The notes under the pieces are model-generated. The model ran no database searches, was not told where the DNA came from, and saw only the letters and a program-made list of their open reading frames with translations. A stretch of DNA of 64,000 bases from Planctomycetota bacterium (GTDB lineage: Bacteria > Planctomycetota > UBA8742 > UBA2392): positions 12,997 through 76,996 of the forward strand of contig JADLFN010000046.1 in NCBI GenBank assembly GCA_020845475.1. Direction: 5' to 3'. The position numbers and the translations under genes are program-made. This document shows, piece after piece, positions 19,996-26,234 of the stretch (its first letter is position 1; every line of letters begins with the position of its first letter).

Positions 19996-21069
19996 TCACG
20001 CCTTCTTGTCTTTGTCCTTCATCATCTCGCCGGCGGCCTTGATGCCCTGCCTGGCAAACCAGCCCGCTCCCTTGCCCGTAAGCTTGGCGACAGTCCAGAG
20101 CGCCGTAGCCGCGTTCTTTGCTGCCGCCACTTTCTCACCCATGGTGGGGCCCTTGGCTTTCTCTTCTTCCGGACGTCCGCCGCTGACGACTTCGGCGTCA
20201 ATCAACGACAACTTCTCGCGCGCCTTGGGCTCGAATTCCGGCGGCGGGCCGACGACCTCCTTGGCCGCCTCACCATAGGCGCGCACGCGGCGCACTTCGG
20301 CCCAGCCATAATAGATGCCCATGGCGGCCAGCAGCAGCATCACGAACTGGTAGAGCAGCAACGTCGAAAGCGGGCTTGTGGATGGATCATTGTATTGCGA
20401 TGTCAACCCGACCAGCCAGCCTCGCAGCGTCAGCAGCAGCACCGAAACGCCGGCGCTGATCAGCCACAGGCCGTGGCTGATTTTCACTGCGCGCTCGGTG
20501 CCCTCCACAAAGCCAAGTCGCGAGGCAAAGAAGCCGCGCACAGCGCGCGCGCCATCCATGGGCCAAAGCGGCATCAGGTTGCCAAGCGCAACAACGAAAT
20601 TGAGCAGCGAAAGCGTGGCCAGAAAGCCGCTCCAGGTGGCCAGCGATGCCTGGCTCAAAATCGGCGCGGCTTGGCGCTGGCTCAGCGCCACGATGACGAA
20701 GGGCGACAACAGCACACCGATGACGGCGTTGACGGCCGGGCCGGAGAGCGCAATCAGCGTTTCATCGATGGGCTTGGCACGTTTGGCCTCAAAGAAAGTG
20801 AAGCCCACGAAAGAAAGCATGATCATGCGCGGCCTGTGCCCGCGCAACTTCACCATGGCTGCATGGCCGGCCTCGTGCAGGAAGATGCAGAACAGCAGCA
20901 CGCACAGCAGCACCAGGTGCGCCACGGCCGCCCAGGTGCCCACGCGCGAGCGTGAAGCATCTTCGAGGCTGAAAAGGAACAGCAGGCCAATCAGCACCAC
21001 CACGTACCAGTCGAGGCGCAGTTCCACGCCAAACCAGCGGCCGAGATAGATGGTGGGTCTGAACGTCAT
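19996..21069 (-). CDS. site-2 protease family (peptidase M50) membrane metalloprotease
   Basis: IFLHEAGHAAMV (HExxH) in a TM helix, and ...NLMPLWPMDGARAV (second metal-ligand motif). Multiple hydrophobic segments and a Lys-rich C-terminal tail. Confidence 0.85.
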   Translation of the reverse strand: MTFRPTIYLGRWFGVELRLDWYVVVLIGLLFLFSLEDASRSRVGTWAAVAHLVLLCVLLFCIFLHEAGHAAMVKLRGHRPRMIMLSFVGFTFFEAKRAKPIDETLIALSGPAVNAVIGVLLSPFVIVALSQRQAAPILSQASLATWSGFLATLSLLNFVVALGNLMPLWPMDGARAVRGFFASRLGFVEGTERAVKISHGLWLISAGVSVLLLTLRGWLVGLTSQYNDPSTSPLSTLLLYQFVMLLLAAMGIYYGWAEVRRVRAYGEAAKEVVGPPPEFEPKAREKLSLIDAEVVSGGRPEEEKAKGPTMGEKVAAAKNAATALWTVAKLTGKGAGWFARQGIKAAGEMMKDKDKKA

Positions 21070-21176: not shown

Positions 21177-21599
21177 TTAGCTGCCGGTTTTCGCAGACGG
21201 TTTGGCTTTGGGCTTTTCGCCGTCGGCGGCGGGCTTGCTGCTTTGAAGGCCCATGCGCGCCTTCCACTCCGCCATGCGCGCCTGGCGGCGCAATTCCTGG
21301 CGCGCCTCGGCACCCTGAAGCGGCCGTCCTTCGCTGTCCACCGTCAGGTCCTTGCTCATGGGCTTTTCGCCCAGCTTGCGCTCGGAAATGTCTTCGCTCA
21401 GGTGAGGTTTGATCGCCGCGTTGTGCTGCGGGTGGGGCTTGACCCAGCTCTTGTCGGGGTGAACGCCGTCCACACGCGCGGGCTCAACGTAGCCTTGCGG
21501 CGGCGCACCCTGCACGCGCGCAATACCCGGCCCGGACATGCCGCAACCCACGCTGAAAATCAGCGCCGCTATCGTGAACAAAAGAGCGACAATGCGCAT
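21177..21599 (-). CDS. putative lipoprotein, hypothetical (140 aa)
   Basis: MRIVALLFTIAALIFSVGCG lipobox, then a low-complexity charged tail. Start moved to ATG 21599. Confidence 0.6.
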   Translation of the reverse strand: MRIVALLFTIAALIFSVGCGMSGPGIARVQGAPPQGYVEPARVDGVHPDKSWVKPHPQHNAAIKPHLSEDISERKLGEKPMSKDLTVDSEGRPLQGAEARQELRRQARMAEWKARMGLQSSKPAADGEKPKAKPSAKTGS

Positions 21600-21674
21600 G
21601 AAGCAGCCAAGCGGGGCGTGCGGGGAGGCTCTGATGTTACCGGCCGGGCGGCAAGTCGTCAATGCGGCCAAACG

Positions 21675-22412
21675 CTACTTCTTGCGCTTGCGCTGGGCGG
21701 CCACGGGGTCGCGGATTTCGGCGGTTTCGACTTCGGCCTCGTGGAAGCGGGGCAACTGCTGGCGCGCGTAGTCAACCAGATCCTGCGGCGCGTCATCGGA
21801 GAAGCGCAGCGAGCCCTTCCTGGTCACGGTCAGGTTGCACTTGCCGCTGGGCAGCTTGAACGACAGCGTCACGCCCTCAAGCTGGTCGGAGAACTTCTCG
21901 CACAGCTTTTCCCCTTCGCGCACGTCGAGCACCTTGAAGCCGCCGGTGCAGGTCATGTTCTCGCGCGCCAGGTACTCCTTGATGCGCATGGCGCGGATTT
22001 CGTTCTTGTTGTAGGCGTGCTGCAGCTCGAACACGTAATCCTTGATGTTGATGTTCAGGTCCCCGAATTCGACGCTGACGTCGGGCAGCGAGTCCAGCGC
22101 CTCGAAGAGCGAGTTCAACTCGCCGCGGCGTTCCTCAACGCTCACCAGCCCGTGCTGCAGGTCGATGTCAAACTTGCACTCCGCCAGCGACTCGACCTTC
22201 TCCTCAATGGGCTTGAGCGTCTTGCGATCGATGCCCTTCTGCTTGCTGGTCTTCACGTAGTAATACTTGCCCAGCGCGCGCGACGGCGCGTTTTCGCCCA
22301 GCACAAAGCCGCGCTCCATGCGCGCTTCGTAGTTGAGTTCTTCCATGGCGCGGCGCATGGCCTTGAAGGAATCTCCGCTGGTGACGAGAGCTTTGAAATG
22401 GAATGAGCGCAT
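21675..22412 (-). CDS. hypothetical cytoplasmic protein, 245 aa
   Basis: Well-formed ORF with balanced composition and a basic C-terminal tail (AAQRKRKK). No motif recognised. Lies downstream of the HEAT-repeat gene on the same strand. Confidence 0.65.
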   Translation of the reverse strand: MRSFHFKALVTSGDSFKAMRRAMEELNYEARMERGFVLGENAPSRALGKYYYVKTSKQKGIDRKTLKPIEEKVESLAECKFDIDLQHGLVSVEERRGELNSLFEALDSLPDVSVEFGDLNINIKDYVFELQHAYNKNEIRAMRIKEYLARENMTCTGGFKVLDVREGEKLCEKFSDQLEGVTLSFKLPSGKCNLTVTRKGSLRFSDDAPQDLVDYARQQLPRFHEAEVETAEIRDPVAAQRKRKK

Positions 22413-22544
22413 GAAGTAGGTCCCGTGTCGCGTGTGCCGAGTTTGCCCGAAAGAGCAGACAGATAACGAACGCCACTGCGCACTTGAAGCGCCAAGGCAT
22501 CAAAGAATTGCTGACTGTGGAGATGTGGAAAACCGACACGGTCT

Positions 22545-25151
22545 CTAGCGCGCGGCGCCAAGCGGCTTGAGGCGGCGCCTGATATCGGCACGCTGGTTTT
22601 CTGACAGGTGTTTTGCGTCGCTCAATTGTTCAAGCCAGGCGCGGGCCAGGTGTGACAGAGTGCGTTCCTTCATCGTGTCAAACAGCGCTTCGACCACCGC
22701 GCGGCGCGCATGCTCGGCGTCGATGGGCTTTTCGCCGATGCGCCTGCGGCACGCGATGAGGAACATGGTCTCGAGAATCTGGCGCCGCTCAACGATCTCG
22801 GGCTCCTGCTCGGCGCTCAGGCGGCGCAGCAATTCCTGCATCACGTTCTGCAGGATGCGGTCGAGGCGCTCGCTGCCCTCATTCTTGGCCGCGATCTGGC
22901 CCAGCACCTGCATGATCGGCAGCAGGTAAACGCGCTTGGCCAGCATCTCGGCGATGTCGTCCACAACGCCTTCATCTTCACGTCCGGAAAGCGCAACCTG
23001 CCCCAACAGGCGGCCAAGCGTGATCACGCTCGCCGGCGCCCAGATCATCTTGTAGGCCGTCACGTCGCGCCAGAACTGCGTCAGGTCGGCCAGCACTTTC
23101 TGGTAGAGCCCCTTGGGCGTTTTGCCCGCACCGAGCATGCGGCCCAGACCTTCCAGCACGCGCGGCACCATGTCGGTGTAGGCCGTGGTCTCGCGCCCGA
23201 ACTCCAGCACGTCTTCGCCCTGCTCGTTCTTCTTGAGTTTGCCCCCCACCGCCGGCAGCGCGCGCTTGAGGAAGCTGAGCAGCAAGTGGCCGATTTCAAT
23301 GCGCTCGCGCCCGTTCAGGCTTTCGCCGGCCGCCAGGTAGCCCATGGCGTCGATCACGTCGTAAACCGCGCTCGACTTGCCAACATGCGTGCGCAGCAAC
23401 TTGCTGATCTCGCCCGCCAGTGGCTCCGAAACCTGCTGGTGCGCCGCGATGCGCGCACACGCGATATACAGCGGGCCGCGTGTGGGAAAACTCTGCTCCT
23501 CAGATTCGATCAGCGCCCGCAATTGCCCAACAAGCTTCTCAAGTTCCTTGCGCGCGATTTTCTTGTCGTGCTCGACGACATCGGGCAGAAGCGCCGCCGC
23601 CGTCAAGCGCGTAATGTCGTAGGAAGATTCCATGATGCCGCGCGTCAGGGGCGCAATCGCGGCGCGCCCGCAGCGGCGCAGTGCGTTCTGCAAGAGCTCA
23701 ATCTGGCGCTCAAAGCGGAACGTGTGCAGGTCGGCCATGAAGTTCTCGGCCGCGACGCGCTTTTCATCTTCACCCAGGTAATCGTGCTCAAAGAAGCCGG
23801 ATTCCAGCAGCACCACGCGCACCGCCACCGATGCCGCAGGGTAGGCCGCAAGGCAGGCACGCGCGGCTTGCCGGCCGGAGTCCCTGGCAAGCTGCCCCTC
23901 GCGCATCATGCTGCCCAGCAGGTTGACGATGCGGCCCTGGCCGGTTTCGTCGGCTTTGGGCAGAGCTTCCACCAAGGTGGGCACAGCGCGCTCTTTGAGC
24001 GAAGTCAGCGCACCGACACAGGTCTGGTAACTGCGATCGAGGTCGCTGCCGCTCTGGATGCCCGCAACGAGGCGGCGCAGGACACGATCCTCGGCCGCGC
24101 CTTCGAGGTCGAAGCGGCAGATGAGGCCCAGAGCGAAAAACTGCAGCGCGCTCTGCGACGATTCTTCCACGGCCGTGATGAGAAGCTGGTTGGCAAGCTT
24201 GCGGTCGTGCCTGTAAAGCGCGGCATAGACCTCGCGCATGGCGTCCTCGTAGACCGCAAGCTGCACCTGCGCCAGATCAAAGAGCTGCTTGTGCAGCGTC
24301 AGCGGAAAATCGCCCAGCTCAGCAGTGTTGCCCAGTTTCATCGCCAACAGGCCCAGGCATGCCAGCACCAGTTCGCGCGGCTCGGACGAGCGCACAAAAC
24401 CCGCCGCCACGGTCAGCGCCAGCTTCTGCTGGGCGCCATCGAGGCGCGCAAAGATCTGCCCGATGTTCGAGATGGCGACGGTGCGCTCGGCCAGGCTGCC
24501 GGCGGAAGCCCTGGCCACGTTCTCTGTCAGCGCGGCATCGAGCCCCAAGGCCCCCAGCGCGCGCGCGGCTTCGGCGCGAACTTCGGCGTCTTTGTCACGA
24601 AGCGCCGCCAGGAAGAGCTGAAGCTTGTCTGCGGGCTTGAGGTTCGCGAGCCAGAGTTTGCGCACGGCCTCAAGGCGCTTTCCCTGGTCGGCGCTGGTGA
24701 GCAAGTCGAGTTTGAGCCGCGCAACTTCATCGGCCCCGAGCAGCTTTGCGGCTTCAGGCGCGCCAATCAGCGCCGCAATGCCGCCCGGCGCCGCCACCGC
24801 CAGCGCCTTGGCGGGGTCGGCAGCGGTGTCGTCGGACTCTTCAGCAAGGCAGAGCACTTGCCGCTCGCCATGCTTGCGCAGCGCCAGCGGATTCTCAGTG
24901 AAGAAATCCTTGTCCTGCTTGGTTGAAAGCGCCTTGAGCGCCTTGGCGTCAAGTGCTTCGGCGGCGTCGAGCAGCGCCTTGGAAAGCAGCAGGTCTTCGA
25001 GCGGCTTGCCGTCTTCGTCGCAGGAGAACTCAACGAGCGATTCCGAGAGCAGCAGTCCCTTGCGCGCCAATGCGCCCACGCGCGTGACAAAACGCCGCGA
25101 AGCGCCAAAGCGCTGCACCAACGAGTCGAATTCATCCTCAATGATGCGCAC
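22545..25151 (-). CDS. 868-aa all-alpha HEAT/armadillo-like repeat protein, hypothetical
   Basis: HEAT-like units such as LRDKDAEVRAEAARALGALG. Leu/Ala-rich helical repeats throughout; no catalytic motif seen. Confidence 0.7.
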   Translation of the reverse strand: MRIIEDEFDSLVQRFGASRRFVTRVGALARKGLLLSESLVEFSCDEDGKPLEDLLLSKALLDAAEALDAKALKALSTKQDKDFFTENPLALRKHGERQVLCLAEESDDTAADPAKALAVAAPGGIAALIGAPEAAKLLGADEVARLKLDLLTSADQGKRLEAVRKLWLANLKPADKLQLFLAALRDKDAEVRAEAARALGALGLDAALTENVARASAGSLAERTVAISNIGQIFARLDGAQQKLALTVAAGFVRSSEPRELVLACLGLLAMKLGNTAELGDFPLTLHKQLFDLAQVQLAVYEDAMREVYAALYRHDRKLANQLLITAVEESSQSALQFFALGLICRFDLEGAAEDRVLRRLVAGIQSGSDLDRSYQTCVGALTSLKERAVPTLVEALPKADETGQGRIVNLLGSMMREGQLARDSGRQAARACLAAYPAASVAVRVVLLESGFFEHDYLGEDEKRVAAENFMADLHTFRFERQIELLQNALRRCGRAAIAPLTRGIMESSYDITRLTAAALLPDVVEHDKKIARKELEKLVGQLRALIESEEQSFPTRGPLYIACARIAAHQQVSEPLAGEISKLLRTHVGKSSAVYDVIDAMGYLAAGESLNGRERIEIGHLLLSFLKRALPAVGGKLKKNEQGEDVLEFGRETTAYTDMVPRVLEGLGRMLGAGKTPKGLYQKVLADLTQFWRDVTAYKMIWAPASVITLGRLLGQVALSGREDEGVVDDIAEMLAKRVYLLPIMQVLGQIAAKNEGSERLDRILQNVMQELLRRLSAEQEPEIVERRQILETMFLIACRRRIGEKPIDAEHARRAVVEALFDTMKERTLSHLARAWLEQLSDAKHLSENQRADIRRRLKPLGAAR

Positions 25152-25166
25152 GCGCCGCCCTTCGTT

Positions 25167-26234
25167 ATGATTCGCGAGATGCTAGACGACCTGCTCAAGA
25201 GCCGCAACGTGGTGGTGCGCGCCCCCAACGCCCTGGGTGATCTCATCATGGCCACGCCGGCATTCGCCCGGCTGGCGGCGCACTTCGGCAAGGAGCGTCT
25301 TTCGCTGATCTGCCTGCCGGCGGGCGCGCAACTATTGCAGGGAAACGCCTGGTTCAAGGAACTCATTCCCTACGACCGAGCCAAAGCCCACAAAGGTTTC
25401 ACCGGTGGCCGCAGATTCGTGAAAGAACTGCGCGCGCGGGATTTCGACCTGGGCATCATCCTGCCAAACAGCTTTGGCAGCGCGTGGCAGATGCTGCGCG
25501 CGGGCGTGAAAAAGCGCGTGGGCTATTTCAAAGAGGGCCGGCGCTGGATGCTGCACGCGGGCCGCAAGCGCGAAACCGACGCGCGCGGCAAGTTCGTGCC
25601 CAAGTACACCGGCGCTTACTTCATGGATTTGATTGACACGCTCGGGCTGCCTCCGGGACCAATGGTTCCCAGCCTGCCCGTAAGCGGTGATGAACGCTCG
25701 CGCGCGGCTGCATTTCTCGCCGAACGGAAGATCGCGCGCGGCCCGCTGGTGATTCTCGCGCCCGGCGCTGCGTTCGGCCCCAGCAAGCTCTGGCCTGCGG
25801 AACGCTTTGCCGCCGTAGGCGACGCGCTGCGCAAAGAGGGAGCCAGCGTGCTCATCAGCTATGGCCCCGGCGAGGAAGAAACGGTAGCCGCGCTGCAAAA
25901 GGCGGCCGCGCCCTTTGCGACCAGCGAGGGGATTGGGCTGAGCACACTTAAGGCGGTGTACGAGAAAGCCACGCTGGTGATTTCGAATGACACGGGGCCA
26001 AGGCACATGGCGGTGGCGCTGGGCAGACCGGTCATCACGCTCATGGGCCCCAACGACCCGCGTTACTCAGAGTTCGCAGGCGAAAAGGGCGAAGTCATCC
26101 GTGTATCCGTAGATTGCAAGCCCTACGCGCAGCCATGCCAGTTGAAGGAATGCCCGATCGATCACCGCTGCATGAAGGGCATTGAGATCGGCCGTGTGCT
26201 GGCCAGCGCGCGCCAGTGGCTAGGAGCCCAATGA
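25167..26234 (+). CDS. glycosyltransferase family 9 (LPS heptosyltransferase-like)
   Basis: ..VRAPNALGDLIMATPAF.. N-terminus, ..ILAPGAAFGPSKLWP.., ..LVISNDTGPRHMAVALGRPVITLMGP.. are typical of GT9 WaaF/WaaC-type enzymes. Confidence 0.85.
   Translation: MIREMLDDLLKSRNVVVRAPNALGDLIMATPAFARLAAHFGKERLSLICLPAGAQLLQGNAWFKELIPYDRAKAHKGFTGGRRFVKELRARDFDLGIILPNSFGSAWQMLRAGVKKRVGYFKEGRRWMLHAGRKRETDARGKFVPKYTGAYFMDLIDTLGLPPGPMVPSLPVSGDERSRAAAFLAERKIARGPLVILAPGAAFGPSKLWPAERFAAVGDALRKEGASVLISYGPGEEETVAALQKAAAPFATSEGIGLSTLKAVYEKATLVISNDTGPRHMAVALGRPVITLMGPNDPRYSEFAGEKGEVIRVSVDCKPYAQPCQLKECPIDHRCMKGIEIGRVLASARQWLGAQ

Follow-up and report, generated by a model that had tools for sequence, protein, structure and literature searches.

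A conserved solenoid/P245 gene pair in one lineage of Planctomycetota: possible undescribed DNA-repair equipment

What do three adjacent genes of a planctomycete do when none of their products carries a recognisable enzymatic motif, and do the three belong together? The genes lie on one strand in a stretch of 64,000 nucleotides (hereafter the window) of the Planctomycetota bacterium assembly GCA_020845475.1 (contig JADLFN010000046.1, positions 12,997 to 76,996 of the forward strand), which has a size of 4.27 Mb and is 77% complete. They encode an 868-aa protein (the solenoid protein), a 245-aa protein (P245) and a small lipoprotein (Table 1). A preliminary description, made from the sequence, had seen in them the outline of a dedicated machine with a large scaffold, a small partner and an envelope-anchored component. 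The three open reading frames (ORFs), their lengths, the RKRKK tail of P245 and the lipobox were all confirmed, as were the gaps: 132 nt from the solenoid gene to the P245 gene, 75 nt from there to the lipoprotein gene, and 15 nt between the divergent starts of the solenoid gene and a GT9 heptosyltransferase gene. The machine itself was not recovered. The conserved unit consists of the solenoid and P245 genes, and the pair looks like undescribed DNA-repair equipment, not an envelope machine. We tentatively read it as a cytoplasmic module of DNA recombination or of the replication fork, in which P245 would be an RdgC-like binder of double-stranded DNA (dsDNA) and the solenoid protein a scaffold.

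Conservation of the solenoid/P245 pair

The sample comprised 401 Planctomycetota genomes, including 25 from the order of the window genome, with 20 in its own family (f1) and two in a sister family (f2). P245 was present in 22 of the 401 genomes, that is in all 20 of f1 and both of f2, and the solenoid in 24 of the 25 genomes of the order. The two genes were co-oriented neighbours in every f1 genome. Among species-representative loci the solenoid gene adjoined the P245 gene in 22 out of 22, at P245 identities of 50-77%. The order GT9(-)/solenoid(+)/P245(+) was held across these loci, with a divergent GT9 gene in 21 of the 22 (locus L043 begins inside the solenoid gene). Homologues of both proteins came exclusively from metagenome-assembled genomes (MAGs) of uncultured "Planctomycetota bacterium", mostly from wastewater or anammox reactors, as judged from isolate and record names. 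Dozens of relatives, 50-96% identical, had kept the lengths and N-termini. On this sequence evidence, both genes are real and under selection.

The junction between the two genes was intact in all 22 loci, whereas the flanking junctions were broken or carried insertions in several lineages. The usual follower of P245, a block encoding a CT398-like protein, RpoD and DnaG, was missing or displaced in the window genome and in several others, and insertions of up to ~3.9 kb part P245 from this block in other loci. On the upstream side, SurA and MerR were absent in three loci.

The co-conservation expected of the neighbourhood thus held for the 868-aa/245-aa pair but not for the lipoprotein. The latter has a PROSITE-type lipobox (…IFSVGC) in its N-terminus, MRIVALLFTIAALIFSVGC, and a Lys/Pro-rich tail, ...GEKPKAKPSAKTGS. 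Its orthologues were found in 23 of the 25 genomes of the order, never beside the pair: they lay ~700 kb off in two near-complete assemblies and elsewhere on other contigs, same genus included. Both the lipoprotein gene and the M50 protease gene that follows it were absent from all related solenoid/P245 loci. Since these two genes are adjacent to the pair in the window genome only, the conserved unit comprises two genes, not three. Scaffold, partner and lipoprotein were not found as conserved neighbours, the lipoprotein gene never being adjacent in other genomes, and its part as a third component has to be given up.

These distributions bear on the proposal of an envelope or lipopolysaccharide machine, in which scaffold, partner and lipoprotein would share their regulation with the GT9 heptosyltransferase. 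The short divergent junction of 15 nt towards GT9, an arrangement kept in 21 of the 22 loci, agrees with such a machine, and so does the presence of the lipoprotein and M50 membrane protease genes behind the pair in the window genome. However, the adjacency of the latter two is confined to that genome, and GT9 is a neighbour of the solenoid within f1 only, never adjoining solenoid homologues in other Planctomycetota. Furthermore, the solenoid and P245 read as cytoplasmic proteins, no signal peptide or transmembrane segment being seen in either when the sequences were read by eye, and P245 has a predicted DNA-binding fold (see below). No evidence of an envelope role was found, and we consider this explanation highly improbable.

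The spacer between the solenoid and P245 genes contains a conserved DNA element of the form TTTCCACA…TGTCAGCAAAcTTTTGA…CTT…GTCGCG…CTAC…GGAG…ATG. It was kept in at least 17 loci, with no more than ~50% identity between the proteins encoded there, and it includes an invariant GTCAG-N6-TTTGA upstream of P245. A GGAG ribosome-binding site precedes P245 in relatives. The spacing of the blocks does not fit a sigma-70 promoter, and the element had neither an Rfam match nor a consensus structure by RNAalifold. Genome-wide, GTCAG-N6-TTTGA had 10 matches against ~4 expected; as only two of the matches lay upstream of genes, they do not describe a regulon. The element is probably P245's own promoter or operator. 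In some lineages an inverted repeat of operator-like look, CTGACA-N8-TGTCAG, is added to it.

Predicted structures of P245 and the solenoid protein

The absence of a recognisable enzymatic motif was upheld for all three proteins by searches of Pfam, NCBIfam, PADLOC and PHROGs, which returned merely HEAT_2, a 20-bit match to phrog_5850 (function unknown) and noise. The sole match to a PADLOC defence model was spurious (13 bits, to a homing-endonuclease model). Profile searches likewise placed neither the solenoid nor P245 in a named functional family. Pfam, NCBIfam and PDB contained nothing that matched P245 in sequence. An exhaustive search with its profile through 1.84 billion cluster representatives brought up only 90 clusters at E <= 1e-3, mostly of 220-240 aa. 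When 73 of these relatives were scanned with Pfam, they gave scattered single matches and no common family. Searching PDB sequences with profiles of P245 and of the wider P245 family yielded nothing useful.

The predicted structure of P245 was more informative. An AlphaFold (AF2) model built from 36 homologues had a predicted local distance difference test score (pLDDT) of 87.1 and a predicted template modelling score (pTM) of 0.79, and was composed of two alpha/beta halves. Searched against PDB with Foldseek, it matched E. coli RdgC (2owl; E 6e-6, probability 1.0, template modelling score (TM) ~0.5). Further matches were RdgC of a second species (2owy), human CENP-L, yeast Iml3, CENP-N and lambda RexA. 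In the viral library BFVD, several matches were phage proteins annotated as RdgC or recombination-associated. RdgC, CENP-L, Iml3, CENP-N and RexA constitute one structural group, which binds DNA non-specifically via dimeric rings or horseshoes (PMC11077077). Because the top PDB matches of P245 are exactly this published group, we assigned its fold accordingly: P245 very probably shares the two-domain fold of the RdgC/RexA/Iml3(CENP-L) type, its predicted model matching a group that is recognised by two alpha/beta domains superposable on RdgC, a globular or centre domain and a base or dimerisation domain.

No corresponding relationship was detected between the sequences. PF04381, the RdgC family, did not match P245 or the 73 wider-family members above its gathering score. 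Aligned with hhalign, the 73-member profile gave a probability of 0.7% (E 0.08) against RdgC and an E-value of 0.04 against the short planctomycete RdgC described below, the RdgC profiles being narrow in both comparisons. As a positive control, the short planctomycete RdgC was aligned with true RdgC at a probability of 96.8% (E 3e-10). Since the profile-profile tests against RdgC fail, P245 represents a family separate from RdgC.

RdgC (PF04381; 2owl, 2owy) is nevertheless the best structural match of P245 and is, like it, soluble and mildly acidic. P245 differs from RdgC in being ~60 residues shorter, in its conserved basic tail and in its pairing with a solenoid gene. By size alone it is nearer to two-domain RexA and Iml3 than to three-domain RdgC, and Iml3 has the same length of 245 aa (PMC11077077). 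RexA, Iml3/CENP-L and Chl4/CENP-N dimerise and bind DNA non-specifically (PMC11077077); RexA, Iml3, CENP-L and CENP-N match P245 in fold while sharing no sequence similarity with it. The partner of RexA is the membrane protein RexB and those of CENP-L/N form a eukaryotic complex, and neither type of partner occurs at the P245 locus. Residues 228-245 of P245 are disordered (pLDDT below 50). This tail, an acidic FHEAEVETAE followed by DPVAAxRKRKK, was kept in most of the 36 homologues, and the basic residues K7, R34, K136, K160 and K186 were invariant within the order.

The P245 gene had the highest GC content at third codon positions (GC3) in the window, 0.88, corresponding to the 99.7th percentile of ORFs in the genome. 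Its peers there were the ribosomal proteins L9 and S18 and a SWIB-domain protein. High expression of P245 was considered on the grounds of this codon bias and dropped, as GC3 of the orthologues was elevated without being consistently extreme and EF-Tu, needed for a proper reference set, is missing from the assembly.

The kinetochore proteins among the matches suggest an alternative in chromosome organisation or segregation, in which P245 would clamp DNA as an abundant nucleoid-associated protein, organised by the solenoid. CENP-L, Iml3 and CENP-N rank among the top structures matched by P245, and the pair bears a loose likeness to kinetochores, in which HEAT-repeat CENP-I stands beside DNA-gripping CENP-L/N. 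The GC3 rank of P245 alongside ribosomal and SWIB proteins would agree with this, as would its own conserved upstream element and the GGAG site in relatives. However, the extreme GC3 does not recur consistently in orthologues and the kinetochore resemblance is at the level of folds only. No par, smc or ftsK gene is linked to the pair, and the linkage of the solenoid to recG reported below favours repair. We regard a segregation role as unlikely.

The 868-aa protein had been described as an all-alpha solenoid with HEAT-like units. Its AlphaFold model (pLDDT 86.5) is indeed a solenoid, with an alpha/beta domain at residues 1-105 and a disordered linker at 108-129 preceding ~19 helical hairpins, but the HEAT character is only partly visible in the sequence, where one HEAT_2 match (E 4e-7; 30.6 bits against a cut-off of 27.7) marks the sole recognisable region. 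The protein thus belongs with the HEAT-repeat proteins, the sequence signature being present in just one or two units. HEAT_2 was matched by 34 of 35 homologues at E<=0.01, and V191, R192, E194, L199 and G203 were invariant across the phylum. Searches of PDB sequences with the solenoid profile found only designed alphaRep/PBS-HEAT chains, through one HEAT unit. Foldseek matches of the model were importin-beta, Kap121, CAND1, SF3B1 and MMS19 (probability 1.0, TM ~0.2-0.33, identity 9-14%). With these karyopherins and other eukaryote-type solenoids the protein shares an architecture of ~19 hairpins and one canonical HEAT unit; the resemblance is generic and gives no sign of homology or of a common function. 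Both the solenoid and P245 are mildly acidic, and the median net charge of solenoid homologues was ~-15.

Two further parts of the solenoid are strongly conserved. The N-terminal domain, which matched no PDB or Pfam sequence, carries a motif, FGxSxRLxxRxGAL, kept across the phylum. A loop, FGRETTAYTDMxPR, follows a low-confidence beta-hairpin insert (local pLDDT 53-60). Its residues F651-T659 and P663-R664 were invariant in the order and P663 across the phylum. Neither the N-terminal domain nor the FGRETTAYTD loop had a match in the searches made. The loop may be considered a candidate partner-binding site. A weak indication of DUF4158, which we take to be the N-terminal domain of Tn3-family transposases, was obtained in 6 of 35 homologues (best E 1e-3); it could not be located in a rescan of 10 and was dropped. 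Full-length homologues (~850-950 aa, sharing the N-terminal motif) were found in 101 of the 401 genomes, from many families. A clear homologue was also carried by G008 and G176, two single-contig genomes of 9.3-9.5 Mb from one genus, with a locus of ~34% GC in the former (L056, G008:C1:6486000-6502000); thus the genomes of the phylum that carry the solenoid family differ greatly in type.

Links to DNA metabolism and competing explanations

Outside the order, the solenoid gene has a different companion. In 7 of 32 sampled loci recG lay directly downstream of it on the same strand. In one other Planctomycetota class (56 genomes), 21 genomes had both genes and 19 of these had them adjacent, in five families, with only 2 nt between solenoid stop and recG start in G213. 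Carriers of the arrangement include G213, G197, G375, G335, G362, G320, G405-G408, G420-G426 and others (e.g. L059:4770-9472), as well as one genome of f19, which is not among the families listed for that class. The substrates that RecG remodels are forks and branched intermediates. We know of no HEAT-type solenoid that partners bacterial recombination proteins, and a literature search found no published work joining Planctomycetes, a HEAT-repeat protein and RecG. To our knowledge, DNA repair in Planctomycetota has been little studied.

The contexts of P245 relatives agree with descent from phages and with a function on DNA. Remote relatives adjoined SSB in one case and a PDDEXK_GAPS4 nuclease in another, and a further one belonged to a series of genes that also encodes Pol III beta, DUF5131, a DNA methylase and HNH. 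Paralogues of 321-341 aa were located in prophage-like regions of two sister genomes (L024:5559-6524 in G061 and L023:5181-6206 in G202). One of them has a DEAD-box helicase, an N6/N4 methylase and a terminase as neighbours; close to the other lie DnaB and a sigma factor. The RdgC family is likewise found in phage replication and recombination modules. Since the remote relatives lie in such modules, the ancestor of the order probably acquired P245 from a phage.

The same contexts could be taken to indicate phage exclusion or defence, with P245 as a DNA or phage sensor similar to lambda RexA. RexA is among the fold matches, remote P245 relatives are phage-borne, one of them beside the PDDEXK_GAPS4 nuclease, and two sister genomes have prophage paralogues. 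However, PADLOC gave no match of note, and the pair occupies a fixed core-genome position in all genomes of the family, not a variable island. A RexB-like membrane partner is absent, the solenoid being soluble. A defence function therefore seems very unlikely.

A canonical RdgC does not appear to coexist with P245. Pfam-type RdgC was absent from the order in a six-frame search, one contaminant contig aside. This sole canonical RdgC (L022; G280:C21:255-1160, at the contig start) was rejected as almost certainly bin contamination, being 58-99% identical mostly to Comamonadaceae RdgC clusters. Short RdgC-like proteins of 205-230 aa were found in 61 of the 401 genomes, all outside the window's order. 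They match PF04381 at positions ~18-160, the N-terminal half (L088, L092, L095, L098-L103; e.g. L095:1035-1712). Their distribution and that of P245 did not overlap in the sample. They occur in the same phylum, are of similar length and probably have the same general role. Unlike P245, they are true relatives of RdgC and do not stand beside the solenoid, the two genes lying on different contigs in G047, G159, G116, G121, G067 and G040.

Taken together, the DNA-binding fold predicted for P245 and the linkage of the solenoid to recG elsewhere point to DNA metabolism, as two independent linkages of the solenoid (recG in one class, an RdgC-fold protein in the order) lead to the same biology. The unbroken adjacency of the pair, the lack of Pfam-type RdgC in the order and the cytoplasmic look of both proteins also speak for this reading. 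RdgC, according to earlier work cited in PMC11077077, binds DNA as a ring, restrains RecA and matters when PriA-dependent replication restart is compromised. By analogy, P245 would form a dimeric ring or horseshoe and bind dsDNA without sequence specificity, leaving its acidic-then-basic tail (…FHEAEVETAE…RKRKK) available for contact with DNA or a partner. The solenoid, acidic overall and devoid of a catalytic motif, would serve as a protein-protein scaffold or adaptor, a platform that links P245 with further factors, as it would link RecG elsewhere in the phylum. The pair would then handle recombination intermediates or stalled replication forks, with P245 as an RdgC-like modulator that came from a phage and was fixed directly downstream of a much older solenoid gene.

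Several points weigh against a recombination or fork module. The solenoid and P245 are not obligate partners: the solenoid occurs without P245 in 79 genomes, and in the sister family they lie on separate contigs in one genome (G265), the other (G029) having P245 alone. With a promoter-like element between the genes, P245 may be transcribed separately. As there is no detectable sequence relationship to RdgC, the link to it is one of fold only, drawn from a predicted model with a TM of ~0.5 and a large rmsd (root-mean-square deviation). The Foldseek matches of the solenoid are generic and carry no functional information. The analysis shows the conservation of the pair, the assigned fold and the phage and recG contexts; DNA binding, dimerisation, contact between the solenoid and P245, and the pathway are what we infer from them. 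Finally, because the whole neighbourhood SurA-MerR-GT9-solenoid-P245-CT398-RpoD-DnaG is syntenic, adjacency by itself is weak evidence of a shared function.

This last point leads to the strongest rival explanation, namely that no common function joins the two genes and that they keep each other's company only because their core region rearranges slowly. P245 might bind DNA even so, with some other task for the solenoid. A nine-gene block of mutually unrelated housekeeping genes (SurA-like, MerR, GT9, solenoid, P245, CT398-like, RpoD, DnaG) is kept in most loci, and the ranges of the two families are far apart (101 of the 401 genomes for the solenoid, 22 for P245). The separated genes of f2 and the conserved element parting the two genes are also what synteny would lead one to expect. 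However, the junctions on either side of the pair have been broken, in the window genome among others, while the one within it has survived in 22 of 22 loci. The agreement of the recG partner and the P245 fold on DNA metabolism would otherwise be a coincidence. We consider synteny alone a rather doubtful explanation, and continue to prefer a module of recombination or the replication fork. A bolder set of proposals, which we judge jointly to be quite unlikely, would extend the module. In these, the solenoid and P245 would form a bacterial DNA-gripping complex with the fold types of kinetochore CENP-I (HEAT) and CENP-L/N (RdgC fold). By analogy with karyopherins, which grip basic peptides, the solenoid would grip the RKRKK tail of P245, which resembles a nuclear localisation signal (NLS). 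As a phylum-wide adaptor, it would bring RecG (in one class) or P245 (in this order) to chromosomal DNA.

Surroundings of the pair and wider meaning

The features of the locus are listed in Table 1. The divergent gene upstream was correctly labelled as GT9 (PF01075, E 6e-36), and its score for TIGR02195, heptosyltransferase II, exceeds the cut-off. The compact 15-bp junction noted for it is real and kept in relatives: the start codons of the GT9 and solenoid genes were 15-48 nt apart in nearly all of them (25152-25166 in the window; L033-L054), with 523 nt in L039. Given so short a spacing, either each promoter must be located within the opposite gene or the two transcripts overlap head to head.

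Table 1. Positions of the features discussed, in window coordinates.
Feature	Position	Strand	Basis
M50 protease gene, downstream of lipoprotein gene	19996-21069		
Lipoprotein gene, 140 aa	21177..21599	(-)	ORF
P245 gene (245-aa protein), C-terminus AAQRKRKK	21675..22412	(-)	ORF
P245 disordered C-terminal tail	21678..21731	(-)	pLDDT; alignment of homologues
Intergenic spacer solenoid/P245 with conserved DNA element	22413..22544	(-)	alignment of 17 loci
Invariant GTCAG-N6-TTTGA upstream of P245	22500-22515	(-)	
Solenoid gene, 868 aa, GTG start	22545..25151	(-)	ORF
Solenoid loop FGRETTAYTDMVPR, aa 651-664	23160..23201	(-)	alignment
HEAT units of solenoid, aa 149-209, core VRAEAAxALGxLG	24525..24707	(-)	Pfam HEAT_2
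Solenoid N-terminal alpha/beta domain, aa 1-105	24837..25151	(-)	AF2 secondary structure
GT9 heptosyltransferase II-like gene, divergent from solenoid gene	25167..26234	(+)	Pfam PF01075, TIGR02195

On the other side, a lineage-specific rearrangement breakpoint lies right after the P245 gene (21100-21675). The CT398-like/RpoD/DnaG block is found upstream of mfd in the window genome (31648-36303), and the lipoprotein and M50 genes have taken its place. The lipoprotein gene may have its promoter in a sigma-70-like site at 21662-21634. In a scan for terminators and promoters, the counts were no higher than in shuffled sequence.

The meaning of the locus depends on which explanation holds. Under synteny alone, the finding would shrink to two separate orphan families. 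If the pair acts in recombination or at the fork, as we tentatively favour, P245 would be an uncharacterised fourth branch of the RdgC/RexA/CENP-L fold, one that sequence profiles do not reveal and that phages share with a single planctomycete order. The solenoid would likewise be an uncharacterised family present in about a quarter of the sampled Planctomycetota, its partners RecG and P245 pointing to recombination or fork repair. The linkage to recG makes this hypothesis testable in culturable relatives.

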